A program made the position numbers and the translations under genes. Below are positions 1,675 through 54,903 of a stretch of 64,000 bases of DNA, piece by piece (the stretch's first letter is position 1; every line of letters starts with the position of its first letter). This stretch comes from Fidelibacterota bacterium. Its GTDB lineage: Bacteria > Fidelibacterota > UBA8477 > JABMPR01. The notes beneath the pieces were generated by a model that saw only the letters and a list, made by a program, of their open reading frames with translations, ran no database searches and was not told the DNA's origin. The stretch spans positions 17,731 through 81,730 of the forward strand of contig JABIFG010000118.1 in the NCBI GenBank assembly GCA_018650795.1, given 5' to 3'.

Positions 1675-1677
1675 ACT

Positions 1678-2460: not shown

Positions 2461-2502
2461 TGGGCCTGAAGGATATCCTTCATTTTTTGTAATACTCGAC
2501 TT

Positions 2503-4341: not shown

Positions 4342-4350
4342 AGAAGCTAA

Positions 4351-5550: not shown

Positions 5551-5565
5551 ATATCCCGGCTGATT

Positions 5566-7139: not shown

Positions 7140-7146
7140 CAGCCTT

Positions 7147-12589: not shown

Positions 12590-12601
12590 GGTAATATCCT
12601 G

Positions 12602-26419: not shown

Positions 26420-27847
26420 ATGAGTAGAATTCAACCCAAAATTTCCGTTCTTAGTAAAGAACAAATCTTAAAAATACATCAGGACTCCCTTAAAGTGCTG
26501 TCCCACACGGGGATACGAGTTGATTCAGAACGAGCAAGAGCATTATTCTCACAAGCTCTTGGTGGAATAATTGATGGTAGTCTTGTTCGGATACCCTCTG
26601 AATTGGTAGAACAAGCTCTCCAATCCGCACCAGAAAATATTGATATGTATAATAGAGGGGGAACCCTGGCTTTTTCTTTGGGAGGAAAACAGGAGCTGGG
26701 AACAATCTACGGGATCGGTGTGACCAACTCCTGGTATCAGAATCCCGACAACGACTCTGCCACACCTTTTACTCGGAAATATGTTGAGCTCGCCACATCG
26801 CTTGGCAATACGCTTACCCAATTTGATCTTGTTTCGACTCCGGGCGTGATCCAAAATGACGATTCCCAGGTAGGTGAGGTGCTAGCTACCCTGGAAATGA
26901 TGGCCAATACGACCAAACCCTTGAGCATATTGATATCGGATCCAGAACAGTTTGATATGTCCCTCAACATGTTGGAACACCTCCACGGTGATCTCTCAGA
27001 GAAGCCATTTCTGCTGCCATACTTTAACCCTATAACACCCCTAGTGCTGAATAAGGACACCACGGATAAGATATTTTCCACCATTGATCGTGGCTTACCT
27101 TTTATTTTTTCCAGCTATGGGATGTCAGGGGCAACAGCGCCTATCAGTGCAGAGGGAACCCTGGTTTTACTCAATGCCGAACTCTTGGCTGGATTAGTAT
27201 TCTCACAACTTATCAAACCTGGTACACCTGTCATTTTGGGATGTCTGCCGTCAGTATTTGAAATGCAATCAATGATTTCTGCCTATACTTCACAGACCAT
27301 GCTGGTAAATCTGGCTTGTGCTGAGATGCTGGATTACTACCAAATACCTCACGCTGGAACTTCAGGAAGTGGTACAGGCTGGGGATCAGATTTACCTGCC
27401 AGTGGTACGTTGTGGATGAATCATCTCACCAGTTCGATAGGCAAGGTGGGTCTTGCCCCATTTGTAGGTGGTAATTTCGATTCACAGGCATTTTCACCCA
27501 CTACTGTGGTCTACGCCAACGAAGTAATTCGGCAAATCAGGCAATTTGGCGAGGGGTTTCTGATGGATGATACAACAAAGATATTTGAGGATATCGATTC
27601 CGTGGGTCCAGGTGGCAGCTTTCTCATATCGGAAGCCACCCTGGCCCAATACCGCGAAGTGCATGAGCAGCATAGCCACATTTGGCCAGGTTATTCCCTG
27701 AACCAATGGCAATCTGAAGGTTCTCCAGATGCATCTAATGTGTTAAGGAAGCAAACCATGGATATGCTGGCTAAGCTCAAAGTTCCCGAAGACCATGATT
27801 CTATACTTCACCGGGGGGAAACATTCATCAAGGGACTTATGCAGTAA
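26420..27847 (+). CDS. MttB-superfamily (trimethylamine/glycine betaine:corrinoid) methyltransferase homolog, non-pyrrolysine type
   Basis: N-terminus LSKEQILKIHQDSLKVLSHTGIRVD matches the MttB family start. About 475 aa, TIM-barrel size. No in-frame amber codon. Confidence 0.65.
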   Translation: MSRIQPKISVLSKEQILKIHQDSLKVLSHTGIRVDSERARALFSQALGGIIDGSLVRIPSELVEQALQSAPENIDMYNRGGTLAFSLGGKQELGTIYGIGVTNSWYQNPDNDSATPFTRKYVELATSLGNTLTQFDLVSTPGVIQNDDSQVGEVLATLEMMANTTKPLSILISDPEQFDMSLNMLEHLHGDLSEKPFLLPYFNPITPLVLNKDTTDKIFSTIDRGLPFIFSSYGMSGATAPISAEGTLVLLNAELLAGLVFSQLIKPGTPVILGCLPSVFEMQSMISAYTSQTMLVNLACAEMLDYYQIPHAGTSGSGTGWGSDLPASGTLWMNHLTSSIGKVGLAPFVGGNFDSQAFSPTTVVYANEVIRQIRQFGEGFLMDDTTKIFEDIDSVGPGGSFLISEATLAQYREVHEQHSHIWPGYSLNQWQSEGSPDASNVLRKQTMDMLAKLKVPEDHDSILHRGETFIKGLMQ

Positions 27848-31354: not shown

Positions 31355-32869
31355 ATGTCCGATGAGATCACTTTAAAAGAAAGTTATTTACGCATCCCCC
31401 TCAGTGCCTGGAAAATTATTCTCGGATTTACAGCCTTTCGTTTGTTCCTCGCCATCATCCTGCCTTTGACTCCTCAGGAAGCTTATTATTGGAGTTGGAG
31501 CAGGGATCTTGCTTTATCCTATTTTGATCATCCCCCTCTAGCAAGTTACAGTATCTGGATGACGACCCTGGTTTTTGGCCAAACTATTTTTGGGATAAAA
31601 TTAGCGGCGGTGCTCTGGTATCTGGCAATGAATGTTATCTGGGCATCAATGATCCAGGAAATGTTTGACAATTCACGGCAGACTTTCTGGACCTTGTTGG
31701 CCCTCAATGCTTCCATTGTATTCGAGCTGTATGGGTTTGTCATTACACCAGATACACCCCTCCTGTTCACCTGGACAGCCACAATTTATGCACTCTGGAA
31801 GCTTGTTCAGACCGAGAATCACAAATGGTGGTATGTAGCTGGTCTATTTATGGGATTGGCATGGTTGGGCAAATATTCAGGGATTATGCTGGTACCCTCT
31901 GTGCTTCTTTTTACTATCGTCTCAAAAAATCAACGCAAGTGGCTACTTACTCCACATCCTTACCTTGGTGTGGTTCTAGCGATCCTTGTGTTTTCACCAG
32001 TGCTCATCTGGAATGCCCAACATGATTGGATGTCATTTGCATTTCAGGGATCCCAAAGGGCTTCAGGGATGGGTCACTGGAAGGTGAAACATTTTGGAGA
32101 ACTATTGGGCTCGCAGTTTTTTATTTTATCTCCCTATTTGTTCGTGCTCATTTTCGCGACATTAATTCGGTATGGACGCAAGCTTTTCTCAGGTCTGGAG
32201 GACAAAATATTACTTCTCCTCAGCAGTGGTCTGGTCACATCGGTCTTCTTTGTTGCAGTAAGTTTTCGCAGTTTAGTTAAAATGAATTGGCTGGCTCCAG
32301 CTTACTGGTCTCTAGTCATTCTAGGGATATATCATCTCTTCCAATCACCTCATCGATTTAACCGTATGAGAGCAGGTATTTTCTCATCACTTATATTTCT
32401 GGGGATCGGTATCTCTGTTGTGGCTATTCCAAATGTACCCCTGGGAGAAGGAAATACCTGGAGTGGTTGGAAACAAGCAGCCCACGATGTGAATGCCTTT
32501 CAGGATTCACTAAGAAATGCGGGTGAATCTACCTTCATATTTAGTACTAATTATAAAGCAAGCTCGCTCCTGAAATTTTATTTACCAGGTCAACCAAGGA
32601 CCTATGCCCAGGATATTATTGGCAAACCAGCTCTTCAATTCGACATCTGGCCCAGGGGAGAAGATTTGAAGGGGAGAACCGGATTACTTGTGGTTGATAA
32701 TCGTCGTGAATATCGCTTCAAATCAAAAAAGATAACATCTTACTTCAGTGATGTGAAAAAGCTGAAGACTATCCGGATTGAAAACTTTGGGAAGTTGGTT
32801 CGGAAAATCGATATTTATCAATGCTCTGACTATAAAGGCACAGAAATAGGAAACAACTATGATCAATAA
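31355..32869 (+). CDS. GT-C fold membrane glycosyltransferase, ArnT/PMT-like (GT83/GT39 family)
   Basis: EAYYWSWSRDLALSYFDHPP is the hallmark first periplasmic loop of ArnT/PMT-type polyprenyl-phosphate-sugar-dependent transferases. At least 10 TM helices, then a soluble C-terminal domain. Confidence 0.65.
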   Translation: MSDEITLKESYLRIPLSAWKIILGFTAFRLFLAIILPLTPQEAYYWSWSRDLALSYFDHPPLASYSIWMTTLVFGQTIFGIKLAAVLWYLAMNVIWASMIQEMFDNSRQTFWTLLALNASIVFELYGFVITPDTPLLFTWTATIYALWKLVQTENHKWWYVAGLFMGLAWLGKYSGIMLVPSVLLFTIVSKNQRKWLLTPHPYLGVVLAILVFSPVLIWNAQHDWMSFAFQGSQRASGMGHWKVKHFGELLGSQFFILSPYLFVLIFATLIRYGRKLFSGLEDKILLLLSSGLVTSVFFVAVSFRSLVKMNWLAPAYWSLVILGIYHLFQSPHRFNRMRAGIFSSLIFLGIGISVVAIPNVPLGEGNTWSGWKQAAHDVNAFQDSLRNAGESTFIFSTNYKASSLLKFYLPGQPRTYAQDIIGKPALQFDIWPRGEDLKGRTGLLVVDNRREYRFKSKKITSYFSDVKKLKTIRIENFGKLVRKIDIYQCSDYKGTEIGNNYDQ

Positions 32870-34775
32870 GCCCTACGGTTCCTGGAAGTCTCCCATATCT
32901 GGTAAGTCACTGGTACAGAGTAGCTTACGGCTAGGTCAAATTCAAATTGATGACGAGAGTATCTATTGGAGTGAAGGACGGCCCGCCGAGAAAGGGCGCA
33001 CTGCTCTCATGACTTGGACCGACAACAAAATACATGAGATAACCTCAGACGATAGCGATGTCCGTACTCGTGCCCATGAGTATGGTGGAGGAGCTTTTCT
33101 CTGTGTGAAGGAGCATTACTTTTATATCAATAATTCTGATCAACAAATATATGAAGTTCATGAAAATGGTGAGCCCAGACAGGTAACCAACCATCCTGAA
33201 TATCGCTTTGCGGATATGATTCTGGATCAAAAGCGCGGTTCGCTATATGTGGTTGGTGAGAATCATGCGGACTCCCAAAATATTAAAAACTGTCTCTTAA
33301 GAATCACCCTGGATGGAGGGGGATTACAGATCATTGCTGAAGGACATGATTTCTTCTCCAACCCTCAGCTTAGTCCCGATGGCAGTCAACTTTTATTTTT
33401 AGCATGGGATCATCCCAACATGCCCTGGGATGGCACCCAACTCCAACTGGCTGATTTGGATTTTGATGGGAATATTGCACGAATTCAGGAGCTTGCTGGA
33501 GGAATGGACGAATCCATTTTTCAACCCCAATGGGATCCCGATGGAAGCATCTATTTCATCTCAGATCGCAATGGCTGGTGGAACATTTATCGTTATTACC
33601 ATTCTCAGATTACCTGCATCCTGGAGAGTGAAGCAGAATTTGGACTACCTCAATGGGTTTTCGGGATGAGTAAATATGCGGTGCTCAATACAGGTGATCT
33701 GGTTGCCGCTTATAGCGATCTGTCTGGGTCACACTTATTGAGAATCGATGTCCAAGAGGGCACATCAATAGAGATTAAAACCCATTATACACATATTGAT
33801 CAAGTTAAAGGATCAAAAAACCATATCGCCTTTATTGGTCATACAGACTCACAGCCAGGTGAAGTGGTGACCATGGATCTGGATGAAAAAACCTCGCACA
33901 CGATACGTAAGGCGGCAGAGATTGATATTAATGAATCGTATATCTCCAAAGCACAACACGTCAGTTTTGAATCTGCTCCTGACGAATTGACCCATGCCTG
34001 GTTTTATCCACCTCGAAACCCTGATTATGAGGCACGCTCCGGAGATTTGCCTCCGCTCATCGTGCTAAGTCATGGGGGACCCACCGGCAATAGCTCAGGC
34101 GCATTTAGTTTGGCTATTCAATACTGGACAAGTCGTGGCTTTGCCATTGTAGATGTGAACTATAGTGGTTCCACAGGCTATGGACGACAATATCGTGAAC
34201 GATTAAAAGGGAATTGGGGTGTTCGGGATGTCCACGACTGTGCTACAGCTGCCAAATATCTGGTAGGTGAAGGCTTGGTTGACAAGGAAAGACTGATCAT
34301 TAAGGGTGGCAGTGCTGGGGGCTATACCACCCTGGCAGCTCTAACCTTTTTGGATGTTTTTAAAGCAGGAGCCAGCTACTATGGCGTTGGAGATTTGACT
34401 TTGCTCGCCCGCGATACCCATAAATTTGAGAGTCGTTATCTGGATAGTATGATTGGACCTTATCCAGAGGAAAAGCAGCTGTATATAGACCGTTCGCCTT
34501 TGAATTTCGCGGATCAGTTGGACTGTCCTGTCATCTTTATGCAGGGTTTAGATGATTCTGTTGTCCCACCTGACCAGGCGAAGAGCATGGTTGCAGCCCT
34601 CAAGAATAATGGAATTCCTGTCGCTTATCTGCCCTTCGAAGGTGAGTCGCATGGATTTAGACAAGCGACGACAGTCGTCAAAGCCATTGAGAGTGAATAC
34701 TATTTTTATACTCGGATATTTGGAATCGATCCTGTTGAGTCAGTTGAACCCATAGAAATTTTCAATTTGGGCTAG
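32859..34775 (+). CDS. S9-family serine peptidase (prolyl oligopeptidase / acylaminoacyl-peptidase type) with N-terminal beta-propeller
   Basis: C-terminal alpha/beta hydrolase with nucleophile GGSAGGYTT, later Asp and His (GESHGF). N-terminal propeller repeats (SPDGS, DPDGS). Confidence 0.8.
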   Translation: MINKPYGSWKSPISGKSLVQSSLRLGQIQIDDESIYWSEGRPAEKGRTALMTWTDNKIHEITSDDSDVRTRAHEYGGGAFLCVKEHYFYINNSDQQIYEVHENGEPRQVTNHPEYRFADMILDQKRGSLYVVGENHADSQNIKNCLLRITLDGGGLQIIAEGHDFFSNPQLSPDGSQLLFLAWDHPNMPWDGTQLQLADLDFDGNIARIQELAGGMDESIFQPQWDPDGSIYFISDRNGWWNIYRYYHSQITCILESEAEFGLPQWVFGMSKYAVLNTGDLVAAYSDLSGSHLLRIDVQEGTSIEIKTHYTHIDQVKGSKNHIAFIGHTDSQPGEVVTMDLDEKTSHTIRKAAEIDINESYISKAQHVSFESAPDELTHAWFYPPRNPDYEARSGDLPPLIVLSHGGPTGNSSGAFSLAIQYWTSRGFAIVDVNYSGSTGYGRQYRERLKGNWGVRDVHDCATAAKYLVGEGLVDKERLIIKGGSAGGYTTLAALTFLDVFKAGASYYGVGDLTLLARDTHKFESRYLDSMIGPYPEEKQLYIDRSPLNFADQLDCPVIFMQGLDDSVVPPDQAKSMVAALKNNGIPVAYLPFEGESHGFRQATTVVKAIESEYYFYTRIFGIDPVESVEPIEIFNLG

Positions 34776-43591: not shown

Positions 43592-46500
43592 CTACTTGGA
43601 GTCAAGAAATTTCAGAACTGAAGCCATGACCTTGTCCCTATTGGTTTTCGAGAGAATACTCTCAAAAGGGAATCCAAATACTACGATATTGGTTTCTCCA
43701 GTTGCGGCAATGGCTGCACTGGTGTTATTCTCAGCATAACGTAATATGGTATGTGCCTCTGGAGTTGCTGGTTCAATTGCATCAGGAGATTCCACCTTAT
43801 AGAGTGAGGGATGGTAACGAGTGTTGAACTCCAGGTCCTGAACAGTTTCCATCTGGAATATATCTTGGGTAACTACACTAAGTTTCCCCGTCTTGACGGC
43901 ATGATCAGTCCGAAATTTATACTTGAGGATATCCTCGCCAAATTGCATATCAAGGGAGTCATTCTCATTGTCAAATAGATCAAATCCAACATAGGCACCG
44001 CTGAGAAACAGGTTCCCTCCAGATTGGGTATAAGCACTGATTTTCTCCTGAAATGATTTTGGAAAACCCCGGAAATCCCTTGGGCTGAAATCCTTTGGAC
44101 CGGAAACCTCTTTTTCCTCACCAAATATCAAATCCAACAAAGTATATTTGTTTATATCCAGTTGCCCGCTCCAGATAGCCTCATCACTTGATGAAACAAA
44201 AGAATAGCCGGCCTCACGTAATGACTTTCCATGAAAATGGGGAAAATCAAAGCTGTTTCCAGGTATGAGGGTGGTTTCCATATCCCCGTAACTCGCACCA
44301 TGTCCTGGTTCATCATCATCTAGCCAGGGTGAAGCGGCCAGGAGATCATATTGGGAGCCGATATAGTTTATATCAAAGCCATCAGCGACACCTTCATCCC
44401 AGAGATCAACAAAGCCGAGATATTTGTCAGTTTCAATGGTACTGGCTGCAGAAATACGATCAAAAGCATTCACAATCAGCACAGGTGCTTTGTCTCCGCC
44501 CATATTACATACCGAAAGAATCTCGGAGGGAAAACTTTCACCCCCAGCATTGAGGGCAGTCACTTTGTAACTGTAAATGATGCCTTCTTCCAGGTTAGTG
44601 ATATCTAGATGGGGAGCATCTACGACGATACCATTGTCGAATCCTTCATCTTCAACCCTTGTGTATACCATATACTTTTCAGGGGTGGCTGTACTCTCCA
44701 ATGGATCTTCCACCGCTTGCCACTGAAGATTCAGTTCACCGGTTTCCGCAAAGGTCGCCTGAAAATGTGATACAGGCAGGGGTTGGATTACATACTCAAG
44801 ATTCCACTGGGTGGAAATGTATCTGACCATGGCTTTATAGATAGATCGACTTGCATCAAATTTGAATCGTGGATCATTGGCGAATTTCATATCCAAAAAG
44901 TTGTGATGGGAGAGGAGCTCCAGCAATACTGAGGGTACGTTGGGTCTATAAGCCTCACTATATCCCCGATCCCAGAGCATTCTACGGGTCCAGGTTGGAT
45001 CATATTTGGCGCGTATGTCATTCACAATCTGAGTTTGGAGAATATCAGCCAGATCCCGATTGGTCATGCGTGACATCGAATCTGGAAAAATTTCGGTCTC
45101 CTCAGAGTCCTCGGTACTATATATAGAAAGCGTGCCGACAACCGTATCATTGCGTGTAAATCCAGCATCTGTATGAAAGGCAAAGGAAAGATCTATGGGA
45201 ATTTTTAATCCGGGAGCCTGACGGTCAAGATTGGGTCCAAAGGGAGCTCCCCGGAGATAATTGACCCACTCAGCCCGGCATTGATAATCATCTTTATAAT
45301 CACTTTCATCTGCATTCAAATTATAAACCAGGGTATCCGGCATTCCAGCATATTGAAGATAGTAACGCGCTGCCTCTGTAAATCGGGGTCGTCCACTGAC
45401 CTGACCTTCTCGAGCAATATTACCAATTCCACCACCAAATCGAATCGCATCAGCGCTAACATATCGCCCCGATTCAGTACTCTTATTGGTTAATTCTACC
45501 CGATGGATATCTGCATTTAGTGCCTGATTGAAGTCAAAGGTGCCCAGATAGATCCAGGTTTTACCACCGATCTGCTGATTTACTAAAAATTCAGTTTGTC
45601 CACCAGTATGGAATACGGTGTAATGAGCATCCGTCACATTGCTATCAGCAGCACTATAGGTGATATAGACAGCATATTTGCCTGCTTCTGGAAGACTGGG
45701 TATCCATCTTATTTTGGCACTGCCGCTAGTGTCTGCCTTGATGTTTCGAGACGTTCCCATAAAAAAGGGATTATCTCCAGAGGCATATGGAGGGGTTCCA
45801 ATGGCGAATCCAGACTCAGCTGATGTTTCCCATTTGTGTAATTTGGAATCATACTCCTGGTAGCCTTGCTTTACATCAGGAGTATTGTTATCAATGATCA
45901 CTTCGTTAGTCTGTAGATCACGCTCCCGAGGCATAAAGACTTGAGCACCAGCATTTTCCAACATGGGAACCAAATAATTGAGAGTAAAGGACATGGGCAG
46001 GAGGTCTTCAACAGTTTGAAAAACTCGAGCTCTTTGCCATTCCCAGCGCTGGAGCTTTTGCTCATAATACCAACCGTGGCTATGCCACAAGGCTATATTG
46101 CGGTTATAGAGGCCGGCAGATGGTTGCCATTTATGGCTCAGGTTACGAACCAGGGGGAGGGATCTGATCTCGGGAGCAGGCATACGACTTTGGTCATAGC
46201 TGCGTTTACTGCCACGGAAATAGTTAGGAACGAGAGCTTCAATTTCATGATCAACAGAGTAAATCTTTAAATTGTAATCTTTGAATTTTCTACCCAGAGA
46301 TGCTTTCAGACTTAAATGGATGTCTTTGACCAGCTTTTCACGGACGGGGATGTTGGCAAAATTCCGACTAAAATGAACCTCAATTTGCTTTGAGTCAGAA
46401 TTTATAATGATTGTGTCAATTCTGGTGTATTTATCCAGCCTCAGATGCGAATCCTCTTTTGTACTGGAGTCAAGAAACTGTTCCACACTCTGGTGAGCTT

Positions 46501-46633
46501 TCCTAGTCACACGATCCATATTTGAATAATCATAACGGGTTTTTCCAGGCTTACTGGATGTGCAGGTAATTAGAAATGATACAAACAGTAGCGTGAGAAA
46601 CTTTTGTGAAATAGACATAATTGAGCGCTCCAT
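43592..46633 (-). CDS. Large lipoprotein with a split MurNAc-L-Ala amidase-like (Amidase_3-like) fold, an FN3 domain and a C-terminal class-I glutamine-amidotransferase-like domain
   Basis: Lipobox FLITC. LENAGAQVFMPRERD, AFHTDAG and VLLELLSHHN mirror the G..V.LTR.D / H.DA / LVE.GF.SN motifs of Amidase_3. YTRVEDEGFDNG...YSYKVTALNAGGES has an FN3 pattern. The C-terminus is ThuA/GATase1-like (VVFGFPFESI). All assignments are motif-level only. Confidence 0.45.
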   Translation of the reverse strand: MERSIMSISQKFLTLLFVSFLITCTSSKPGKTRYDYSNMDRVTRKAHQSVEQFLDSSTKEDSHLRLDKYTRIDTIIINSDSKQIEVHFSRNFANIPVREKLVKDIHLSLKASLGRKFKDYNLKIYSVDHEIEALVPNYFRGSKRSYDQSRMPAPEIRSLPLVRNLSHKWQPSAGLYNRNIALWHSHGWYYEQKLQRWEWQRARVFQTVEDLLPMSFTLNYLVPMLENAGAQVFMPRERDLQTNEVIIDNNTPDVKQGYQEYDSKLHKWETSAESGFAIGTPPYASGDNPFFMGTSRNIKADTSGSAKIRWIPSLPEAGKYAVYITYSAADSNVTDAHYTVFHTGGQTEFLVNQQIGGKTWIYLGTFDFNQALNADIHRVELTNKSTESGRYVSADAIRFGGGIGNIAREGQVSGRPRFTEAARYYLQYAGMPDTLVYNLNADESDYKDDYQCRAEWVNYLRGAPFGPNLDRQAPGLKIPIDLSFAFHTDAGFTRNDTVVGTLSIYSTEDSEETEIFPDSMSRMTNRDLADILQTQIVNDIRAKYDPTWTRRMLWDRGYSEAYRPNVPSVLLELLSHHNFLDMKFANDPRFKFDASRSIYKAMVRYISTQWNLEYVIQPLPVSHFQATFAETGELNLQWQAVEDPLESTATPEKYMVYTRVEDEGFDNGIVVDAPHLDITNLEEGIIYSYKVTALNAGGESFPSEILSVCNMGGDKAPVLIVNAFDRISAASTIETDKYLGFVDLWDEGVADGFDINYIGSQYDLLAASPWLDDDEPGHGASYGDMETTLIPGNSFDFPHFHGKSLREAGYSFVSSSDEAIWSGQLDINKYTLLDLIFGEEKEVSGPKDFSPRDFRGFPKSFQEKISAYTQSGGNLFLSGAYVGFDLFDNENDSLDMQFGEDILKYKFRTDHAVKTGKLSVVTQDIFQMETVQDLEFNTRYHPSLYKVESPDAIEPATPEAHTILRYAENNTSAAIAATGETNIVVFGFPFESILSKTNRDKVMASVLKFLDSK

Positions 46634-46680: not shown

Positions 46681-47418
46681 TTAGTTAGAGGCGGCTCTAG
46701 AAAATAATACATACCCCAATGTGACACCCAAACGATATCCTGACCAATCTGGACTGACTTGCTTATTGTTGACACGCAGAATCGCATCTGAATTATCCTT
46801 TAAGTGGAATGGTTTTGAAAAAGTCAAATGATAGCCACCATCAATGGATATTGATAATCTCTGTACCTTGTATGCAAGTGATATCATTGGGTCGAGACCA
46901 AGGCCCATTGCCACTAACTCATTTTGAGTTACTTCACTTTCATCAAGAAGAATGATCTCATCCAGCATGTCGAGGGTGCTCCACAGAAAGCTTATAGGCA
47001 TGTTGAAGGTAGAGCTAAAACATTTGGAGGCCATTATTGTCCAGGTATTGGAAAGTCCAAATCCATTACAGGTAAGAATCTGATCCGAGCTAATCTCTCC
47101 AGAATAATCTGCGTAGTGAATACGGCCACCGGTCTCCATATGCATCCAGGAAAGCCCCCCTGTGTATCCTTGACTGAATCTGTGGAGGACTTCAACCCTT
47201 GAAAAATAGAAATCTGGGAAATTAGAAGTGATTTTAACAGGGACAGACATGCCTTTCAACTCTGCAATCACCTCTGTTTGTAGATTGTGCAAACCGGGCA
47301 TGTTATAATGACCCTGACCCCCTTGGATACGGAATTCAAGATTTGCAGAATGGGCGCTGGACATTAAGCAGAAGCAGCAAAACAGAATATTTCTCAGGAC
47401 ATTCCTATGATCAATCAT
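46681..47418 (-). CDS. Hypothetical secreted protein (possible outer-membrane beta-barrel)
   Basis: Signal peptide ILFCCFCLMSSAHSA. Alternating beta pattern. No motif recognised. Confidence 0.35.
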   Translation of the reverse strand: MIDHRNVLRNILFCCFCLMSSAHSANLEFRIQGGQGHYNMPGLHNLQTEVIAELKGMSVPVKITSNFPDFYFSRVEVLHRFSQGYTGGLSWMHMETGGRIHYADYSGEISSDQILTCNGFGLSNTWTIMASKCFSSTFNMPISFLWSTLDMLDEIILLDESEVTQNELVAMGLGLDPMISLAYKVQRLSISIDGGYHLTFSKPFHLKDNSDAILRVNNKQVSPDWSGYRLGVTLGYVLFSRAASN

Positions 47419-49315
47419 TTAAAGCCTCAATGGGCAGTACATATCCCGATGTGAATATTTTATCGTCCCAGAGTTTATAGGCACCTGAACTAATAGAAAT
47501 ATCGTGAATGGCTATTCCCGATATGGGATCATATATCATATATCGATCGCTACTCAGGAATTTGCCACCAACATAGCCTGTGGTGGGATCATAATTAGGT
47601 CTTCGAAGTTTTTCAGATGTTAGAACCTGATTTACAATGCCCATATCGGCGGCACTATAAACGGTCATTGTCTGGTCATCTGCTACAATAAATTGATTGC
47701 CATCGCCAACAAAAATACTCTCGATCCACTGACCTAAATCTGCTCGCCCTGCTAGATGATTAGAGCTCACAACATAGAGCGAGTCATAGGCAATTAAATA
47801 TTGACCATTTGCAGATATTTTGGCAGAAGTTGAATAAGCATAATTTGGATTAATTACTTGAATGGGGTCATTCATTTGGATGACCACAACGCCCATACCC
47901 CAATTCACATTGTCACTATCTCGGTAGCTCGGAAAGGTAATCCAGTTGTTATTTGAGACGGAGATATCATCCATTGCCCGACCATTATATCCCAGGAGTG
48001 AGCTGGTGGTCCAGGTTTGCAGAATGCTCAAGGATAGGGGGTCCACGCTTTGGAGATAACCGACATCATTCGAATAACTCATTATGTAGGCCAATTGTCC
48101 GTCTGGAGAGATCCCAAATTGGCGATAACTGGCTTCTGACATTATGTTAAGTGAATCTAAAATTGAATAGGACTCAGCATCGTGACGATAAAGTGTCTGG
48201 CCATAGAGTCGGTAAAACGATAATTGGCTCTCACTGAATTGTAAGCTTCCGGGATGGGGGAAGGTCTCACCCAGAAAGGCGTCAATATTGCTATGCAAGT
48301 TATCCGACCAGATCGAATTGTTTTTCAGGCCAACTTCCAGAATGTACTCAATCGGGTCTCCAAACCAGGCATCGATATCAAGATAGCTTGTATCATTAAT
48401 GTTATCAGTAGTATAGATGGAATTATCATCCACCTGGATGCTATAATGAGCAAAATTTTGTGGATAATGACAAGGGGACCATTGCAAGTGTATTTCGTTA
48501 TAGTTTGTGTCGTTGGAAAGATAAAAAGTGGGTGCCGACTCTTCATAGAACATGAATTCACCTAGAGCTGATCCCAGTTCAGAAATAATATTCACTCGAT
48601 AATAGGCTGGTCCGCCCAGGTATGTCGTGTCCACTATACTCGTTTGATTGATATCAAATGTAGAAGTAAGATGGCGTTCATCAATAAACCCACCAGAAGT
48701 AGGGTGGCCTTTGTCAATATTGTATCTGACAAACCCATTTCTATTAAATTTTTCCCAGTTGATAACCATATCACCAGATTCAGTCGAAATGTTAAGCATA
48801 GCCAATGAGATGGGGGGTCGATTATCAATGATAAGCGTGTATTCACGTTCAAACATGAGATATTCCAGACCGGCAATATCTGCCAGACTATTTGAACCTG
48901 AGCTTGAAAAGCCTTTAATGATTAAACTAAGTGTATCTGAAACGTAATTATTTGTATAGAATGAATAGGAGCCGGTAGGTTGACTAAAACTATAAATTGT
49001 CACATTCTCTAGCAGAAGTTCTCCTTCATAAAAATTTCGCCCCAAAAGGTCGAGATTATAGGCAAGAGTGGCCTGGCCCCAAACGGTAATGGTGTCTGGG
49101 GATCCATTCAAGTCAATATAAAGAACGGGTTCGGGTATCGTTTTGTCCTGAAAATTGCTTCCTGTCGGAGAGTATTTACACTGGATGAGTAAAAAACTGA
49201 TGACAATCAGGACAAAAATAGGTTGAAGAATTCTTGAATTCATTTGCTGGAGAGTGACTTTGACATTGGGAAAGCGAGAGGATTTCGCTGTTTTTTCACA
49301 CAAAATATTTTTCAA
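47411..49315 (-). CDS. Hypothetical Asn/Ser/Tyr-rich lipoprotein with Ig/FN3-like and beta-propeller-like segments
   Basis: Likely lipobox LLIQC after an internal Met. AT-rich. No recognisable catalytic motif. Confidence 0.4.
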   Translation of the reverse strand: MKNILCEKTAKSSRFPNVKVTLQQMNSRILQPIFVLIVISFLLIQCKYSPTGSNFQDKTIPEPVLYIDLNGSPDTITVWGQATLAYNLDLLGRNFYEGELLLENVTIYSFSQPTGSYSFYTNNYVSDTLSLIIKGFSSSGSNSLADIAGLEYLMFEREYTLIIDNRPPISLAMLNISTESGDMVINWEKFNRNGFVRYNIDKGHPTSGGFIDERHLTSTFDINQTSIVDTTYLGGPAYYRVNIISELGSALGEFMFYEESAPTFYLSNDTNYNEIHLQWSPCHYPQNFAHYSIQVDDNSIYTTDNINDTSYLDIDAWFGDPIEYILEVGLKNNSIWSDNLHSNIDAFLGETFPHPGSLQFSESQLSFYRLYGQTLYRHDAESYSILDSLNIMSEASYRQFGISPDGQLAYIMSYSNDVGYLQSVDPLSLSILQTWTTSSLLGYNGRAMDDISVSNNNWITFPSYRDSDNVNWGMGVVVIQMNDPIQVINPNYAYSTSAKISANGQYLIAYDSLYVVSSNHLAGRADLGQWIESIFVGDGNQFIVADDQTMTVYSAADMGIVNQVLTSEKLRRPNYDPTTGYVGGKFLSSDRYMIYDPISGIAIHDISISSGAYKLWDDKIFTSGYVLPIEALND

Positions 49316-49434
49316 TAATTAAACAAATCCCCACTTTAAAAATAATTGTTACTTGTGTTAGATAATATTGTATAGAATTCCGATATTCAAAGAATTAGAA
49401 TAGAAACCAGGGAATTTTGTACATGACAACCTTC

Positions 49435-50151
49435 TTAGCCGCTTTTAATCCGAAATAAAATGGTCTGGCCAAAAGAAATTAAGGCAGCCATGAGTAAGCG
49501 AAACTTTTTGATTGAAACCTCCCCGGTTTGTCTTTCTTGATGGGGGATTAATGTTTCATAAATGCTACATTTTTTCAAATTTACCATACCTGAGATGATC
49601 AGGTTTGGCGCGAAGGTATCTGAGGGAATATTTAACAAAAATTTACTCACTGCAGAAACTCGCATCAACCTGAAAGGGGAGTTTACATCCCAAACGCCCC
49701 TAGCATAAAATAGTCGAATCACTGATCTTGAAATGAAGCTCACTACCCTGCGAGATAAGGCTTGAGACCGTTGGGACCTGCGCCCCAATAAAAAATCATA
49801 CTCCCCCCGATTTGCCCATAACTCGTTGAAATGTTTAGCTGACATCTCGCCATCAGAATCTGTTTGGAAAATCCAAGTGCTATGGAGGGCTTGGGTGTAT
49901 CCTTTAAGCAAGGTAGGTCCATGGCCACAATTTGGTGAGGCATGAATTTCCAACGATTTCATGTCCCTTGCTAATACATTCAGGATTTCAAGGGAATTGT
50001 CCGTAGAACCATCATTGTAAGCATGGATTCGATAGTTAAGACCGAGTTCCCCAAGAGTAGCGTCCCACTCCTTAAGCACCTCGGAGATAATTTCAGCCTC
50101 GTTGTACACGGGGACAATCAGAGCGAGTGTTTCAGCTTGGTTTTCCGTCAT
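49435..50151 (-). CDS. GT2 glycosyltransferase, polyprenyl-phosphate sugar synthase type (DPM1/GtrB-like, soluble)
   Basis: LIVPVYNEAEII, YNDGSTDNS and the DxD (TDSDGE) region. 238 aa without a C-terminal TM, like DPM1. Confidence 0.7.
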   Translation of the reverse strand: MTENQAETLALIVPVYNEAEIISEVLKEWDATLGELGLNYRIHAYNDGSTDNSLEILNVLARDMKSLEIHASPNCGHGPTLLKGYTQALHSTWIFQTDSDGEMSAKHFNELWANRGEYDFLLGRRSQRSQALSRRVVSFISRSVIRLFYARGVWDVNSPFRLMRVSAVSKFLLNIPSDTFAPNLIISGMVNLKKCSIYETLIPHQERQTGEVSIKKFRLLMAALISFGQTILFRIKSG

Positions 50152-51287
50152 TTGGTTTGGCTACTGATTTTATCGTATGTACTGAGAGCGGCCGCGATGG
50201 TCTGATCCATATCATAATATTTGTAATCTCCCAAACGACCACCAACGCAAAGATTCTCATGTTGAATGAGTTCTGCCTGGTACTTCTCAAGCAATGCTTT
50301 GTTTTGTGCTCCACCCAGCGGATAGGAAGGGTCATCTCCCTTGTCAGCGTGCGAAAACTCCTTAATTGTCAAGGTCTGACTATCAGGGTACACTTTCTCG
50401 GGGTGCAGATGCCGTGGTTCATGAATCCTGGTATAGGGAATCTGTTCTTCGGCATAATTCATCACAGAAGTTCCCTGGAAATCGCTTACCTCTCTGATTT
50501 TCTCCTCAAATGACAATCCACGCCATTCCAATCGTCCATATTTATATCCAAATAGCTTATCGATGGGACCGCTATAGATGATCTTTGCATCCTCGGCCAG
50601 TTCATCCCTGATTTCAAAAAAGTCAGTTTTCAGTTCAACCTGGATTCTGGGATTGGCCAGGAGCTTGTCAAATATTGGGGAGTAACCATGGATTGGAATA
50701 CCCTGCCAGGAGTCGAAAAAGTAGCTTTCATCATAATTGGTCCTAAACGGCAGGCGTTTTAGAATGGAGGCAGGGAGCTGTTTAGGGTCACAGCCCCATT
50801 GTTTGGCTGTATATCCCTTAATGAAGGCCTCATAAAGAGGATAGCCCATCATACTGATAGCTTTTTCTTCAAAATTGGAGGGCTGGTCAATACCCGATTT
50901 ATGTGCTTCCGTCTCAATAAAAGCAGTGACCTCAAAGGGTTTCAGGTTTAATCCGTAAAAGCTATTAATGGTTTCCAGATTGATGGGCATCTGGTAAACC
51001 TTATTCTTAAAGGTGGTGAGAACCTGATGACGATAGCCATTGAATTCAGTAAACCTATTGATGTATTTCCAGACCTCTGTATCACTAGTGTGGAATATAT
51101 GGGTGCCATAAAGATGATAGTGTATACCAGTTTCCGAATGGTCAACAGAATGGCAGTTTCCACCAGTATGATCTCGTTTTTCTATCACCAGGACGGGTTC
51201 ACCAAGATCATTTGCAATACGCTCAGCTATGACAGCACCAAAAATTCCGCTACCTACTATGACATATTTATAAGTTTGTGGGCTCAT
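50148..51287 (-). CDS. glf: UDP-galactopyranose mutase
   Basis: YKYVIVGSGIFGAV FAD motif and GGNCHS, with Glf-typical length and internal conserved Tyr/Arg region. Confidence 0.85.
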   Translation of the reverse strand: MSPQTYKYVIVGSGIFGAVIAERIANDLGEPVLVIEKRDHTGGNCHSVDHSETGIHYHLYGTHIFHTSDTEVWKYINRFTEFNGYRHQVLTTFKNKVYQMPINLETINSFYGLNLKPFEVTAFIETEAHKSGIDQPSNFEEKAISMMGYPLYEAFIKGYTAKQWGCDPKQLPASILKRLPFRTNYDESYFFDSWQGIPIHGYSPIFDKLLANPRIQVELKTDFFEIRDELAEDAKIIYSGPIDKLFGYKYGRLEWRGLSFEEKIREVSDFQGTSVMNYAEEQIPYTRIHEPRHLHPEKVYPDSQTLTIKEFSHADKGDDPSYPLGGAQNKALLEKYQAELIQHENLCVGGRLGDYKYYDMDQTIAAALSTYDKISSQTK

Positions 51288-51288
51288 A

Positions 51289-52794
51289 CTACTGAAGATT
51301 TCTTACATATATTTGGAAGTATGAGCGATTGCCAAGCAGGTGATAGTCCTCTGAAACGAACTCGTATAACCGGTTTTTTTCAATATTACCCTCTTTGCTG
51401 TTCCAGATAAAAACCGCTGGAGGTGCCTTCTCCAAATCCGCCAGTAATCGCGACATCAGTTCGCTGACTTTTTTATTCTTCTTCTCTTTCAGAGGAAGAT
51501 TGTAGAATATTCCAGATGCTGCCCTTCTTTGACTGTAATAATAAACTCCCGATTCAGAGCCCCAGTAATAGATCGACTCATCCGGATTCGTCATGGCCTT
51601 GATTTCGAGGCCCATTTCCCAGGCATCGATAAATTGATCACCGTATTTCTCATGAGATAATTCAACTGGACTAAGTTTGAAGAATTCAACCTGATGATTG
51701 ATCATGGTCCCAAGAGCAACTGATATCAATGCACTTCCCAGGAGCAAACGCCAAACCCGATTTACTTTTAGTTCTTTAAAAATGTTGATGATCAGTAGAC
51801 TGGAATTGATGGTTAACATTGGAAAAAGGGTCTGATTATAGTGTGGATAATTACGACCGATACTTCCTATTTCAAATAGAACCCCAAGCGTCATTAAAAT
51901 GAAGAAGTAGTGAGGTGTTTGCATCTTTTTAGATCGTGAGCCGATAAAGAGCCAGGCGTAACCCAATAAAACGAGAATCCATATCCCATACAGGGATTGC
52001 GAGAATAAATAGGTGGGTCGAGAGAAAAATCCCCAAATATTCATAAGGAAATTTCCAGAATATTGACCGTTGTACACGATGAGTATATCCCAGTACTCTT
52101 GAAATCGACCGAGTAGTAGAGCATAAGCAAACATGGAGCACCACAGCAGTGGTACGGGGTACAAGATGGCCAGGCTCTGTTGGAAATATGTCTTTATATT
52201 GCGGTTCTCCTGGGATTGGTAAATCTGGAGCAGAATGTAGAATAGCATAGGTACGAGAACAAAGACTGCAACAGGTTTGAACATAGTTGCTATTCCCATA
52301 GCCCAACCCGCCAGGTGTAAATGCTTGAACCGGGGCATAGGTGTCTGCACCAGCGCCCATATGGCAACCAGCGTGAATAGATTTAAGAATATTTCTGTGT
52401 TGGGTTGGTTGGCCTGTAAATAGGCAGAATTTGAAGAGAGGACCCAAAATGACACACCTATCAGACCAGATTGCCAGCCTGAGATTTTGTCAAGAATTAA
52501 GTAAATCAAGAGGGTTGAGAGGATAGTTACGATAACCCATAAAAAAGTTAGTGATTGTTGTCCATAACCCCAGATGAGCTCAGACATTGCGAAAGTGATA
52601 TGAATACCTGGTGGTTTGTGATCCCACAGTTCTGTATATAGATGCTCTCCGGAAAGCAGAGCGTGGCCAATATATCCATAAGAAGTGAGATCTCTTTCCA
52701 GTGGTTCTTCCATTGAGTGCATTGCAGAGGCAAAAATAAATATAATGGCGAAAATAAAGATGAGCGCTGAGATAATATTTTTGGATTTAGTCAT
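51289..52794 (-). CDS. GT-C fold membrane glycosyltransferase (ArnT/PMT-like), 12+ TM
   Basis: LERDLTSYGYIGHALLSGEHLYTELWDHKPPG first-loop motif. Polytopic. 2-nt gap to glf. Confidence 0.6.
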   Translation of the reverse strand: MTKSKNIISALIFIFAIIFIFASAMHSMEEPLERDLTSYGYIGHALLSGEHLYTELWDHKPPGIHITFAMSELIWGYGQQSLTFLWVIVTILSTLLIYLILDKISGWQSGLIGVSFWVLSSNSAYLQANQPNTEIFLNLFTLVAIWALVQTPMPRFKHLHLAGWAMGIATMFKPVAVFVLVPMLFYILLQIYQSQENRNIKTYFQQSLAILYPVPLLWCSMFAYALLLGRFQEYWDILIVYNGQYSGNFLMNIWGFFSRPTYLFSQSLYGIWILVLLGYAWLFIGSRSKKMQTPHYFFILMTLGVLFEIGSIGRNYPHYNQTLFPMLTINSSLLIINIFKELKVNRVWRLLLGSALISVALGTMINHQVEFFKLSPVELSHEKYGDQFIDAWEMGLEIKAMTNPDESIYYWGSESGVYYYSQRRAASGIFYNLPLKEKKNKKVSELMSRLLADLEKAPPAVFIWNSKEGNIEKNRLYEFVSEDYHLLGNRSYFQIYVRNLQ

Positions 52795-52913
52795 ATTATG
52801 GATTTTTCAATTCTTAAATTTTGAAATAATTAACCTAAGTGTATATTCAACTCACAAAGGTGAATAGATTGCTAAAAACTTAATCGTGAAATTCTTTCCT
52901 TCCAAGTGATGAG

Positions 52914-54289
52914 ATGATGAAAGTAGTATTGGTAAGACCAAATTATGACAGCCACATAATAACGCCACCACTAGCGTTGGGCTACCTGTCGTCCTATTTG
53001 AAAAAAATGGAATGGATGTAAAAATATTTGATGGTTTACGTGACAATGTTAGTAATGCTGAACTTTTAGAATCAATCGTCGCCGAGACTCCAACCGTCGT
53101 TGGGATTACCTGTCTTACTGCATTTTATAAAGAGACCATCGAATTATCACAAATGCTCAAGGAAACGGGGCTGCGGGTTATTATCGGTGGTGTCCATCCA
53201 ACATTTCTTCCTCAGGAAACACTTGCTGAATCAGGGTGTGATTATGTCGTATTAGGTGAAGGAGAGATTGCTCTACTTAAGCTTCTTCAAAATAATTTTC
53301 AAAGTGATAGTATCGCAGGCGTTTATTCAATCAAAGATTTTGAGGACAGCAAGCCTGTAATTAAAAAAGGGAAAAAGATTGAGAATTTAGACGACATTCC
53401 ATTCCCAGATTGGGAGCAACTCAATCCCAATTTATATCCTAAAGCACCCCATGGGGCAATTGTCAAAAATTTTCCAGTCGCTCCAGTTATAACAACTCGT
53501 GGTTGTCCATATGAATGCACATTTTGTGCAAGTCCTAGCTTTTATGATCGCAAAATCCGGTTTAGATCACCAGAGAATGTTATCCAGGAAATTAAATATC
53601 TTGTTGATCAATTTGGGATTAGAGAAATCCACTTCGAAGATGATAATCTGACAATCAGACGTGGGCATATCGATAAAATCTGCGAACTTATTATCACAAC
53701 GGGAATCGAAATTAGTTGGGCGTGTCCTAATGGAATTAGAGCCGATAAAGTCGATGCAGACCTAATATCCAAGATGAAGGAAAGTGGTTGTTATTATTTT
53801 GCCTACGGAGTGGAATCAGCGGATCAACAGATTCTTTCTAATATTAAGAAACAGGTGAAAATTGAAACCATAGAGAAATCAATTGACCTTGCTTCCAAAG
53901 CGGGTATCTCATGTCAGGGATTTTTTATTTTTGGTCTGCCAGGGGAGACTGAGGAAACTCTCAATAAAAGTATTCACTTCGCGAAAAGGTCAAAGTTGGC
54001 AAGAGCTCAATTTCTGATCTTAGACGTATTGCCAGGTTCAGAATTGTGGGATACGCTCAAAGGTAAATTTGTCCCCAATTGGGATAAGAAAAGCTATAAG
54101 GAACCGGAGTGGTTGCCTGGAGAGCTGACCGATAAGCTGCTTATGAACGCTCAATCAAAAGCGTTCAGAGAATTTTATTTTAAATCTCCCCTGAGATTCC
54201 TGAAACTGGCACTTTCAATTAAACCCAGTCAAATAAGATTCTTAATTCACCGACTTCTAGATTATCGTATTTTTAATAAAACTGATTAA
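52914..54289 (+). CDS. B12-binding radical SAM protein; N-terminal 33 codons are in a different frame because of an A7 homopolymer (53001-53007)
   Basis: Tracked ORF 53012-54289 carries the CxxxCxxC motif (TTRGCPYECTFCAS) and cobalamin-binding domain. Frame 52914-53021 encodes MMKVVLVRPNYDSHIITPPLALGYLSSYLKK, the canonical start of the B12-binding domain. One extra A would fuse the frames (..YLKKNGMDVKIFDG..). Confidence 0.7.
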
Positions 54290-54483
54290 TTATTCTTGCC
54301 GCTAATACAGAAGTACGCCCCATCAAGCCATCCAAATTTCAGGAAGAATTAAATCAAATAATCCTCTCTACGTCCTCAGCGCACTTTGCGGTTAGGCAGT
54401 TTCGAGAAATTCATTTAATTGGTTGAAAAAAAGCTGAGAGTTGTATAAAACAAAAAATCCCACCAAAAGGCAGGATTTAATTG

Positions 54484-54558
54484 CGGGACCGACCGGGATC
54501 GAACCGGCGACCTCCGGCTTGACAGGCCGGCGTTCTAACCAAGCTGAACTACGATCCC
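54484..54558 (-). tRNA. tRNA-Asp (GTC)
   Basis: Reverse complement GGGATCGTAGTTCAGCTTGGTTAGAACGCCGGCCTGTCAAGCCGGAGGTCGCCGGTTCGATCCCGGTCGGTCCCG folds as a cloverleaf with anticodon loop CUGUCAA, a T-loop GGTTCGATCC, a 7-bp acceptor stem and discriminator G. CCA is not encoded. Confidence 0.85.
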
Positions 54559-54644
54559 AAAATATCAAAAAATTTATGCGGAACTCCGCTTTCACACTTC
54601 TACCAGGCTGCCTGTCACGGCGAAGCTCGGAGAGCGAAGACGGA

Positions 54645-54660
54645 AACTACGATCCCAAAA
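54645..54660. repeat. 16-bp direct duplicate (AACTACGATCCCAAAA) of the tRNA-Asp 5' end plus flank; first copy at 54547-54562
   Basis: Exact 16-mer repeated 98 bp apart. The second copy has no tRNA body. Confidence 0.6.
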
Positions 54661-54672
54661 ATTTCAAACGGC

Positions 54673-54903
54673 TTAGTCTTTTTTCCTGTATAATATTGCG
54701 ACTGGAATGATTACCAGATAGCCAATGAGTAAAACAACCGGTGAGACTGACAGTGCTTGCACACTGTTTAATTCACCTGTACCCATCAAAACATATCCAA
54801 GAATTATGACAATAAGCCCTGCTATGAAAAGAAAATAATTTATTCGCGTAAATGGTAACTCAGAGAGCCAGTGTTTGGTGCCTTTGTTTCCTTCACTTAT
54901 CAT
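54673..54903 (-). CDS. Small two-TM membrane protein (DUF3098-like)
   Basis: 76 aa, two hydrophobic helices; pattern typical of a small Bacteroidota-conserved membrane protein. Confidence 0.4.
   Translation of the reverse strand: MISEGNKGTKHWLSELPFTRINYFLFIAGLIVIILGYVLMGTGELNSVQALSVSPVVLLIGYLVIIPVAILYRKKD

Follow-up and report, generated by a model that had tools for sequence, protein, structure and literature searches.

A Glf-linked, putative Gtr/Arn-type operon of a Fidelibacterota bacterium and the proposal of a lipid-linked galactofuranose donor

A stretch of 64,000 nucleotides from contig JABIFG010000118.1 of a Fidelibacterota bacterium (hereafter the window) carries three co-directional genes, in which a UDP-galactopyranose mutase gene (glf) is enclosed by genes for two glycosyltransferases of the GT-C and GT2 type. 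This arrangement raises the question whether the product of the mutase, UDP-galactofuranose (UDP-Galf), is the sugar source of a lipid-linked glycosylation system that acts in the periplasm. It is considered probable that the operon encodes a Gtr/Arn-type pathway, in which undecaprenyl-phosphate-galactofuranose (Und-P-Galf) is made and its sugar is then passed on in the periplasm, most likely in the form of alpha-Galf.

The operon and its three products

The open reading frame (ORF) list of the window confirmed three ORFs on the minus strand within 49435-52794, and their positions agree with a preliminary description of this DNA:

51289-52794, minus strand: first gene of the operon, GT-C polytopic glycosyltransferase, PMT_2/ArnT-like, 501 aa
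50148-51287, minus strand: second gene, Glf, UDP-galactopyranose mutase, 379 aa
49435-50151, minus strand: third gene, GT2 protein of the polyprenyl-phosphate glycosyltransferase class, without transmembrane (TM) segment, 238 aa

Transcription starts with GT-C and continues through Glf to GT2, so that GT2, previously described as the first gene, is the last. A spacing of 2-4 nt had also been given, but direct reading of the sequence revealed a 1-nt gap between GT-C and Glf (TAG-t-ATG) and a 4-nt ATGA overlap of the Glf stop and the GT2 start. A Pfam scan of all window ORFs of at least 150 aa found no glycosyltransferase besides those of the trio and a second PMT_2 gene, and Glf is therefore without another local client.

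The 379-aa protein passes the curated model for UDP-galactopyranose mutases (UGMs), as its earlier assignment would lead one to expect: with the TIGR00031 equivalog it scored 330.3 bits (cutoff 303.75) over residues 6-373 of 379. Pfam GLF (1.8e-70) and NAD_binding_8 (1.8e-17) were matched as well, and the FAD-binding Rossmann motif (GxGxxG) is present as VGSGIFG at residues 11-17. Full-length alignments were obtained with solved UGMs (best 2.4e-118); the best PDB matches, from 2.4e-118 to 1e-93, are genuine UGMs of Mycobacterium, Corynebacterium, E. coli and Klebsiella. The C. jejuni structure 4mo2, a mutase of altered specificity (UDP-GalNAc, Campylobacter UNGM), was matched with 9.4e-94. Judged from these scores, the protein would supply UDP-Galf.

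The GT2 protein matched Pfam Glycos_transf_2 with 42.8 bits (cutoff 23.3). Its best NCBIfam matches were ArnC, PgfS and PpgS, all far under their cutoffs; the PpgS match was weak (1.6e-4), and with the ArnC equivalog NF007986 47.3 bits were reached against a cutoff of 529, so that by its scores the protein is ArnC-like, not ArnC. When a profile made from an alignment of 31 diverse GT2 homologues was compared with the sequences of the PDB, near full-length matches were obtained only for ArnC (1.8e-23, positions 5-218 of 236), GtrB (5.5e-19, 4-223) and archaeal DPMS (6.5e-12, 5-213), whereas other GT-A enzymes aligned only at approximately 1-120, the N-terminal nucleotide-binding half. The AlphaFold2 model (pLDDT 92.2) has a GT-A fold, and the top 25 Foldseek matches in the PDB were all ArnC, GtrB or DPMS structures (E 2e-15 to 1e-11, TMq 0.62-0.79), with ArnC as the best (2e-15) and a fall in score before the first GT-A enzyme outside this group. 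D98-x-D100, D155/N157/P159 and G210 are invariant in the alignment of the homologues. The DxD metal/nucleotide-sugar motif corresponds to D98-S-D100 within FQxDSDxE, and the GT2 family thus carries DxDxE in place of the DxDxQ of lactococcal and GtrB-type enzymes (PMC10821137). A region with the motif R-x-x-G-E-x-S, located in the acceptor-side half (residues ~120-218), is common to the GT2 protein and ArnC.

In the model the C-terminus of GT2 forms a single long helix (216-237), and the protein appears to resemble the TM-less DPM1/PpgS type rather than GtrB/ArnC. The preliminary description of a soluble DPM1/GtrB-type enzyme is thereby borne out, and its own counter-proposal, a processive or non-polyprenyl transferase, was not what the searches returned. 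By profile and fold the GT2 protein is classed as a non-processive polyprenyl-phosphate glycosyltransferase, with transfer to polyprenyl phosphate suggested by its fold and its partners, and we propose that it is an undecaprenyl-phosphate galactofuranose synthase.

The GT-C protein matched PMT_2 (5.9e-12; 46.5 bits, cutoff 26.1) and gave no match in NCBIfam. Its profile had no true match among the PDB sequences either, and only the fold search was informative. The AlphaFold2 model (pLDDT 94.8, pTM 0.94) consists of a polytopic N-terminal module and a periplasmic C-terminal domain, and the best Foldseek match was ArnT (5f15, 4.6e-9), followed by STT3/PglB/AglB, DPY19, ALG12, Pmt4 and AftD; Emb and AftB were also among the fold matches. 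The top 44 matches were all GT-C enzymes and all users of lipid-linked donors, which upholds the earlier assignment to the ArnT/PMT type and speaks against a family that uses nucleotide sugars. Among 46 homologues, the first loop after TM1 has the conserved motif E30-P-L-E33-R34-D35 ... W57-D58-H59-K60-P61-P62, in which E30, E33, R34, D35 and all six residues from W57 to P62 are at least 90% conserved or invariant, and N129/Q130/P131/N132/E134 are conserved as well. The EPLERD...WDHKPP loop may be a signature of the ArnT/PMT type; judged from the positive-inside N-terminus (MTKSK) it would be periplasmic. The GT-C protein is therefore proposed to be an ArnT-like periplasmic transferase that uses a lipid-linked sugar. 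In locus L087 a distant relative (33% identity) is encoded directly after kdsB-like, pyrG and kdsA-like genes (2497-7770), a context that gives a faint hint that the GT-C family of the window acts on the core of lipopolysaccharide (LPS) or on lipid A.

Distribution, neighbourhoods and fusions of the GT2 family

The trio is kept in nine Marinimicrobia-type contigs (L001-L004, L006-L010) with GT-C identities down to 52%. As the whole region with MltG, UvrD, the trio, a Golvesin_C protein, GNAT and PEPCK is syntenic within Marinimicrobia, conservation of the trio inside this lineage proves little alone. The GT2 family was found to comprise 767 clusters (50% identity) at E<=1e-30 in an exhaustive profile search, and relatives were present in at least 591 species in a scan of one genome per species. 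Between phyla the proteins are ~50% identical, with the near-invariant motifs PVYNE, YNDGSKDNT, NSGHGPTIL, FQxDSDxE, DVNSPYRLMR, TFAPNVIISG and RQTGEVSIKK. A search of a phage collection, in which serotype-converting elements were sought, gave one weak match of 34% on an unannotated faecal phage contig, and a plasmid collection gave none.

Gene neighbourhoods were counted in the 80 best genomic loci of the family, 68 of which had enough upstream DNA; 78 were used for the counts of GtrA and of polytopic proteins (at least 5 TM segments and at least 340 aa). Glf was located directly upstream of GT2 on the same strand in 30 of the 68 loci, with gaps of 2-67 nt, and within 7 kb in 39. A GtrA-like gene was present no more than two genes from GT2 in 23 of the 78 loci, and a polytopic protein was equally close or fused in 52. 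GtrA, Glf, GT2 and a polytopic protein recur as a minimal cassette in loci L012, L013, L016, L070 and L072, which belong to other phyla. Glf-linked loci were obtained from Marinimicrobia, Cloacimonadota, Bacteroidota (Polaribacter) and Ignavibacteriales, from Gammaproteobacteria, Bdellovibrio, delta-proteobacterial lineages and SAR324, from Verrucomicrobia, Lentisphaerae, Kiritimatiellae and Planctomycetes, and from Cyanobacteriota, Saccharibacteria, Bacilli and WOR-1. The linkage of the genes is far beyond chance. A mutase conserved elsewhere without its partners had been named beforehand as a sign of coincidence; what was found instead is the Glf-GT2 pair in many phyla.

The polytopic partners with a Pfam match belong to PMT_2, GT87, PMT and Mannosyl_trans4, families whose characterised members use polyprenyl-phosphate-sugar donors, and most of the partners had no Pfam match. 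Such diversity is expected of acceptor-specific GT-C enzymes that have one donor in common. The flavobacterial cassette lies within a polysaccharide locus with nonulosonic-acid and glycosyltransferase genes, and the cassette of Bdellovibrio adjoins a Wzy_C gene, so that the acceptors there are probably surface polysaccharides. In L025, L029, L043 and L076 two or three polytopic genes follow GT2, which is possibly compatible with extracytoplasmic polymerisation as well as with the addition of side chains.

The family also contains gene fusions, which were surveyed in the 150 best cluster representatives. Sixty of these reach a length of at least 560 aa, and in 55 of the 60 an N-terminal GT2 domain is followed by at least five predicted TM segments. 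Seventeen matched the hidden Markov model of the window's own GT-C family, and a Pfam scan of 61 proteins (59 of the 60 long ones and two others) yielded 11 matches to PMT_2 and 5 to GT87. GtrA is fused to GT2 in one representative (P0307) and also in locus L051. One further representative, P0328, joins GT2 (residues 8-234) to Glf (290-655); it is a single called ORF of 664 aa (L086 6001-7995) on a 23-kb contig with a methyltransferase gene and two PMT_2 genes, the latter 3-6 kb downstream of the fusion on the opposite strand. This lone GT2-Glf fusion could in principle be an artefact of assembly or gene calling, though it is a single ORF. By adjacency or fusion GT2 is tied to each of its three partners, namely Glf, the GtrA-type flippase and the periplasmic GT-C transferase, and the fusions connect all four components.

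Two side observations were made in these loci. The syntenic flavobacterial polysaccharide loci of Pseudotenacibaculum (L044) and Polaribacter (L071) both encode NeuB, a NeuC-like epimerase, GT2, GT-C and further glycosyltransferases; directly upstream of GT2, Polaribacter has Glf (L071 5813-6952) and Pseudotenacibaculum a CMP-sugar cytidylyltransferase (CTP_transf_3, L044 6303-7001), and the two GT2 proteins are 70% identical. In addition, a class I S-adenosylmethionine (SAM) methyltransferase of ~225 aa (Methyltransf_23/31) is present in unrelated Glf/GT2/GT-C cassettes, between Glf and GT2 in L020 (6319-6990) and, in L086 (10156-10845), as the second gene downstream of the fused GT2-Glf. This recurrent enzyme might O-methylate the Galf residue.

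Two further genes of the window had been grouped with the operon in the preliminary description:

8973-9464, minus strand: GtrA-family small membrane protein, 163 aa, candidate flippase (PF04138 1.7e-24)
31355-32869: second PMT_2 GT-C gene, 504 aa (PMT_2 4.2e-34)

Both are genuine members of their families, but neither is linked to the operon: the GtrA gene, the only one in the window, is ~40 kb away and the second GT-C gene ~18 kb. GT2 and GT-C are thus encoded together, and GtrA, the third component of a three-component system, is not encoded with them. The two GT-C proteins of the window are remotely related (30% over 88 aa, E 0.001). The end of the second GT-C gene overlaps a gene of the S9 prolyl-oligopeptidase family (region 31355-34775), and no cognate polyprenyl-phosphate GT2 gene lies nearby; its product could use the same lipid-linked donor or could be a true analogue of ArnT/PMT.

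Proposed pathway and its alternatives

In the proposed pathway, Glf would turn UDP-alpha-D-galactopyranose into UDP-alpha-D-Galf, and the translationally coupled GT2 would move Galf onto undecaprenyl phosphate (Und-P) at the cytoplasmic face of the inner membrane. A GtrA-type flippase, for which the protein encoded at 8973-9464 is the candidate here, would carry the lipid-linked sugar across the membrane, and the ArnT-like GT-C would pass Galf to a periplasmic acceptor, which may be a protein, LPS or some other surface glycan. Inversion is the rule for GT2 enzymes and for every known GT-C enzyme. The intermediate would accordingly be Und-P-beta-D-Galf, and a second inversion should leave alpha-D-Galf on the product, in agreement with what has been argued for the alpha-pentofuranoses of the Citrobacter three-component systems (PMC11127046). 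Since the mutase equilibrium holds only a minor share of UDP-Galf, a tight coupling of Glf to its consumer would be sensible. Galf as the lipid-linked sugar, the anomeric outcome, the partnership with the GtrA protein of the window and the acceptor are what we infer here.

Several points weigh against this pathway. The operon itself has no flippase gene, and the GT2 protein, being without a predicted TM segment, is also without the C-terminal TM hairpin of GtrB and ArnC and without the TM domain of archaeal DPMS. The donor specificity is drawn from gene context and one fusion, and the identification of Galf is accordingly tentative. Distant GT-C relatives (<=36% identity; L005, L087, L088, L089) are not linked to Glf or GT2, which suggests that the GT-C partner is lineage-specific and that the GT2-Glf pair is the conserved core. 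A Glf gene within 7 kb is missing from about half of the family loci, among them those of Akkermansia, of many Kiritimatiellae and of Pseudotenacibaculum. Furthermore, a full-text literature search for Und-P-Galf, polyprenyl-phosphate-Galf or a Glf-linked GtrB-type system found none, although subscription journals were thinly covered and an earlier description is possible. With no lipid-linked Galf donor in the searched literature, the chemistry would be without precedent, and the statement of the preliminary description that such a donor is known from a few actinobacterial and eukaryotic cases could not be substantiated.

The loci without adjacent Glf bear directly on the possibility that GT2 loads Und-P with an ordinary pyranose (galactopyranose, glucose or GlcNAc), as GtrB does, and that Glf serves something else, such as a cytoplasmic Galf transferase that is encoded elsewhere and modifies the same glycan. 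About half of the loci indeed have GtrA or GT-C partners and no adjacent Glf, and all characterised GtrB-type enzymes use pyranose donors. However, Glf directly precedes GT2 at a distance of 2-67 nt in many phyla, the two overlap by ATGA in the operon studied here, and a GT2-Glf fusion exists, all of which is at odds with separate tasks for the two proteins; in addition, the window has no other glycosyltransferase able to use UDP-Galf, and the minimal cassettes L012, L013, L016 and L072 likewise leave Glf without another client. A neighbour-joining tree showed Glf-adjacent and non-adjacent GT2 proteins to be interleaved, and mixed pairs can be very similar (L026/L027, 93.5% identical; L071/L056, 74.8%). 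A split in specificity within the family was considered and rejected, as no alignment column separates the two groups; the largest difference in frequency, 0.49, occurred at a variable position. Interleaving and close mixed pairs would fit one donor specificity with Glf encoded elsewhere in the genomes concerned, and a pyranose donor is regarded as unlikely. A fosmid from an Akkermansia-like gut bacterium carries Glf (PMC3861447), which shows only that some members of this group have the enzyme; a literature search on Glf in Akkermansia yielded no description of the system.

The absence of a TM segment would also suit a conventional cytoplasmic galactofuranosyltransferase, comparable to WbbI or GlfT1, that acts on an Und-PP-linked or other acceptor, while the GT-C protein works independently with a different donor. 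In loci for O-antigen or capsule, glf is often a neighbour of the gene for the cytoplasmic Galf transferase that it supplies. A lactococcal example has been described (PMC10821137). Against this stands the acceptor-side half of GT2 (~120-218, including the R-x-x-G-E-x-S region), which is matched only by polyprenyl-phosphate glycosyltransferases, and the frequent adjacency or fusion of GtrA and the fusion of GT2 to GT-C-like domains in many clusters would be odd for an unrelated pair; this explanation appears quite improbable. A change in the sugar alone would leave the rest of the pathway intact: if the mutase had a different or broader substrate (UDP-GalNAc, UDP-L-arabinopyranose), the lipid-linked sugar would be GalNAcf or arabinofuranose. 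Close Glf homologues with other specificities are known, and 4mo2 (9.4e-94), one of them, is among the matches of the protein; yet Glf scores above the UGM equivalog cutoff and its best matches (2.4e-118 to 1e-93) are genuine UGMs, which makes an altered mutase very improbable. That the three genes are merely neighbours by lineage-specific synteny, with no common function, would agree with the synteny of the whole region from MltG to PEPCK within Marinimicrobia; it is strongly disfavoured and hardly credible, since linkages of Glf, GT2, polytopic proteins and GtrA recur in unrelated phyla within different neighbourhoods, and as fusions.

The proposed Und-P-Galf pathway can be placed beside several known systems. 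In the GtrA/GtrB/Gtr(type) glucosylation of O-antigen by Shigella and Salmonella phages, a GT2 likewise loads Und-P from a UDP-sugar, GtrA flips the product and a polytopic transferase acts in the periplasm; GtrB ranks high among the matches of the GT2 protein in both sequence and fold, and GtrA accompanies the GT2 family in other phyla. In contrast to these systems, the donor proposed here is a furanose, formed by a mutase from the operon itself, the GT2 protein is devoid of the two C-terminal TM helices of GtrB, the operon has no GtrA, and the partner is PMT_2/ArnT-like instead of a serotype-specific Gtr protein. ArnC and ArnT, which with ArnE/F modify lipid A with L-Ara4N, are the best matches of GT2 (1.8e-23 by sequence, 2e-15 by structure) and, by structure, of GT-C (4.6e-9), whereas the GT2 score of 47 bits is far from the ArnC cutoff of 529 and no genes for Ara4N synthesis are present here. 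The Csd three-component systems have the same working logic as the proposed pathway.

Lipid-linked furanose donors are used elsewhere. In Citrobacter youngae O1/O2 a flipped lipid-linked furanose donor serves a GT-C enzyme that adds alpha-linked pentofuranose side chains after polymerisation (Kelly et al., PNAS 2024, PMC11127046), which is the same way round the stereochemical limits of direct transferases as proposed here. In that case a polyprenyl-phosphoribose synthase and a phosphatase build the donor from phosphoribosyl pyrophosphate, a MATE protein acts as the flippase, and neither Galf nor Glf is mentioned in that work (PMC11127046); in the pathway proposed here a GtrB-class GT2 would use a UDP-hexofuranose, together with GtrA-type flippases. 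The mycobacterial PpgS (Rv3631)/Rv3779 system for polyprenyl-phosphate-GalNAc resembles the operon in that PpgS is a small TM-less GT2 that loads polyprenyl phosphate for a GT-C partner, and the Emb/Aft enzymes, which use decaprenyl-phosphate-arabinofuranose (DPA), are a precedent for lipid-linked furanoses as donors of GT-C enzymes. Both systems handle other sugars, and DPA derives from an epimerised ribose precursor and not via a GT2. For Galf itself, mycobacteria rely on GlfT1 and GlfT2, cytoplasmic enzymes with UDP-Galf as donor. These two enzymes, WbbI and the lactococcal WpsC/WpsF consume what Glf makes, as the proposed synthase would, and their genes often adjoin glf (PMC10821137). Their acceptors are Und-PP-linked glycans on the cytoplasmic side, and the linkage formed is mostly beta-Galf, while the GT2 protein of the operon falls structurally in the polyprenyl-phosphate acceptor class and has a flippase and GT-C proteins as its associates.

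Neighbouring genes and wider meaning

The surroundings of the trio are of the housekeeping type, with MltG, UvrD, tRNA-Asp and PEPCK. One exact protein match assigned the DNA to Candidatus Marinimicrobia, and the LpxC-FabZ fusion near the beginning of the window is consistent with a genome of the Fibrobacteres-Chlorobi-Bacteroidetes group. The following features were distinguished at the operon and in the lipid A region:

268-1674: LpxC-FabZ fusion protein
1678-2460: LpxA
5566-6510: LpxL-type acyltransferase
7147-8976: MsbA-like ABC exporter
43592-46633, minus strand: predicted lipoprotein of 1013 aa with Golvesin_C, fn3 and a weak Amidase_3 match
46681-49315, minus strand: two genes without Pfam match, between the GT2 and Golvesin_C genes
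52795-53011: divergent intergenic region of 217 bp between the operon and the B12-binding radical SAM gene, presumed promoter region by its position only
53012-54289, plus strand: B12-binding radical SAM protein, divergent from the operon

The candidate flippase belongs to a lipid A and envelope gene cluster (268-9464), which also encodes Dxr, an RseP-like M50 protease and Sua5/YrdC; the 3' end of the MsbA-like exporter gene overlaps the convergent GtrA gene by 4 nt. The location of GtrA beside MsbA and LpxL hints at an LPS-related role of the flippase.

In a scan of 49000-53300 for the sigma-70 consensus, sites were no commoner than in shuffled sequences, the consensus being uninformative for an organism of the Fibrobacteres-Chlorobi-Bacteroidetes type. 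The B12-binding radical SAM protein had HpnJ, BchE and P-methyltransferases as its best NCBIfam matches, all far under their cutoffs. Homologues are encoded near the cassette in the Marinimicrobia contig L004 (4176-5489, 70%) and in the unrelated loci L018 (~11950-12850) and L076 (~3580-4800), at 31-36%. The gene was rejected as a member of the system, as this recurrence is about what chance would give for an abundant family; its product could be a sugar-modifying enzyme and is probably a chance neighbour.

Downstream of the trio, the Golvesin_C/fn3 lipoprotein is syntenic in most Marinimicrobia relatives (62-86% identity), and within Marinimicrobia only. The two genes at 46681-49315 code for proteins of 634 aa, with a lipoprotein-like N-terminus, and 245 aa, with a signal peptide; they are missing at this position in all related Marinimicrobia contigs L001-L009, and the pair looks like a local insertion. 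A role as acceptor was considered for all three proteins, and no evidence was obtained for or against it.

Apart from the operon, the tRNA-Asp (GTC) was located at 54483-54558 on the minus strand, so that the listed ORF of 89 aa across it (54441-54710, plus strand) is spurious. An MTTB-family (trimethylamine methyltransferase-like) protein of 475 aa is encoded in one uninterrupted ORF (26420-27847, plus strand) and may be of the non-pyrrolysine type, which would be consistent with a marine heterotroph. Characterised non-pyrrolysine members of this family act on glycine betaine or other quaternary amines.

With regard to the GT2 family as a whole, we lean slightly towards the view that Und-P-beta-D-Galf is a real, undescribed donor, that the TM-less GT2 family of ~235 aa is its dedicated synthase across many phyla (Bacteroidota, Bdellovibrionota, the Planctomycetes-Verrucomicrobia-Chlamydiae group, Cyanobacteriota/Melainabacteria, Saccharibacteria, Bacillota and Marinimicrobia), and that diverse GT-C partners add alpha-Galf outside the cytoplasm and possibly polymerise it in loci with several GT-C genes. 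If true, this would be the hexofuranose counterpart of the DPA and Und-P-ribofuranose pathways and would widen the three-component furanose pathways, recently described for pentoses, to include a hexose, with the operon of the window as an ordinary-looking member of an apparently large, unrecognised pathway. Mammals have no Galf, whereas in bacteria, fungi and parasites the sugar recurs as an antigen and is of interest as a drug target. All bacterial Galf transferases known to us are cytoplasmic and take the sugar straight from UDP-Galf. If the donor were lipid-linked, Galf could also be added by another route, outside the cytoplasm, and the origin of alpha-Galf linkages could be predicted. 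Glf beside the GT2 family would then be a simple genomic marker for glycans that carry Galf, both in uncultured lineages and in bacteria of the gut and the sea, among them Akkermansia-related strains, Polaribacter and Bdellovibrio.

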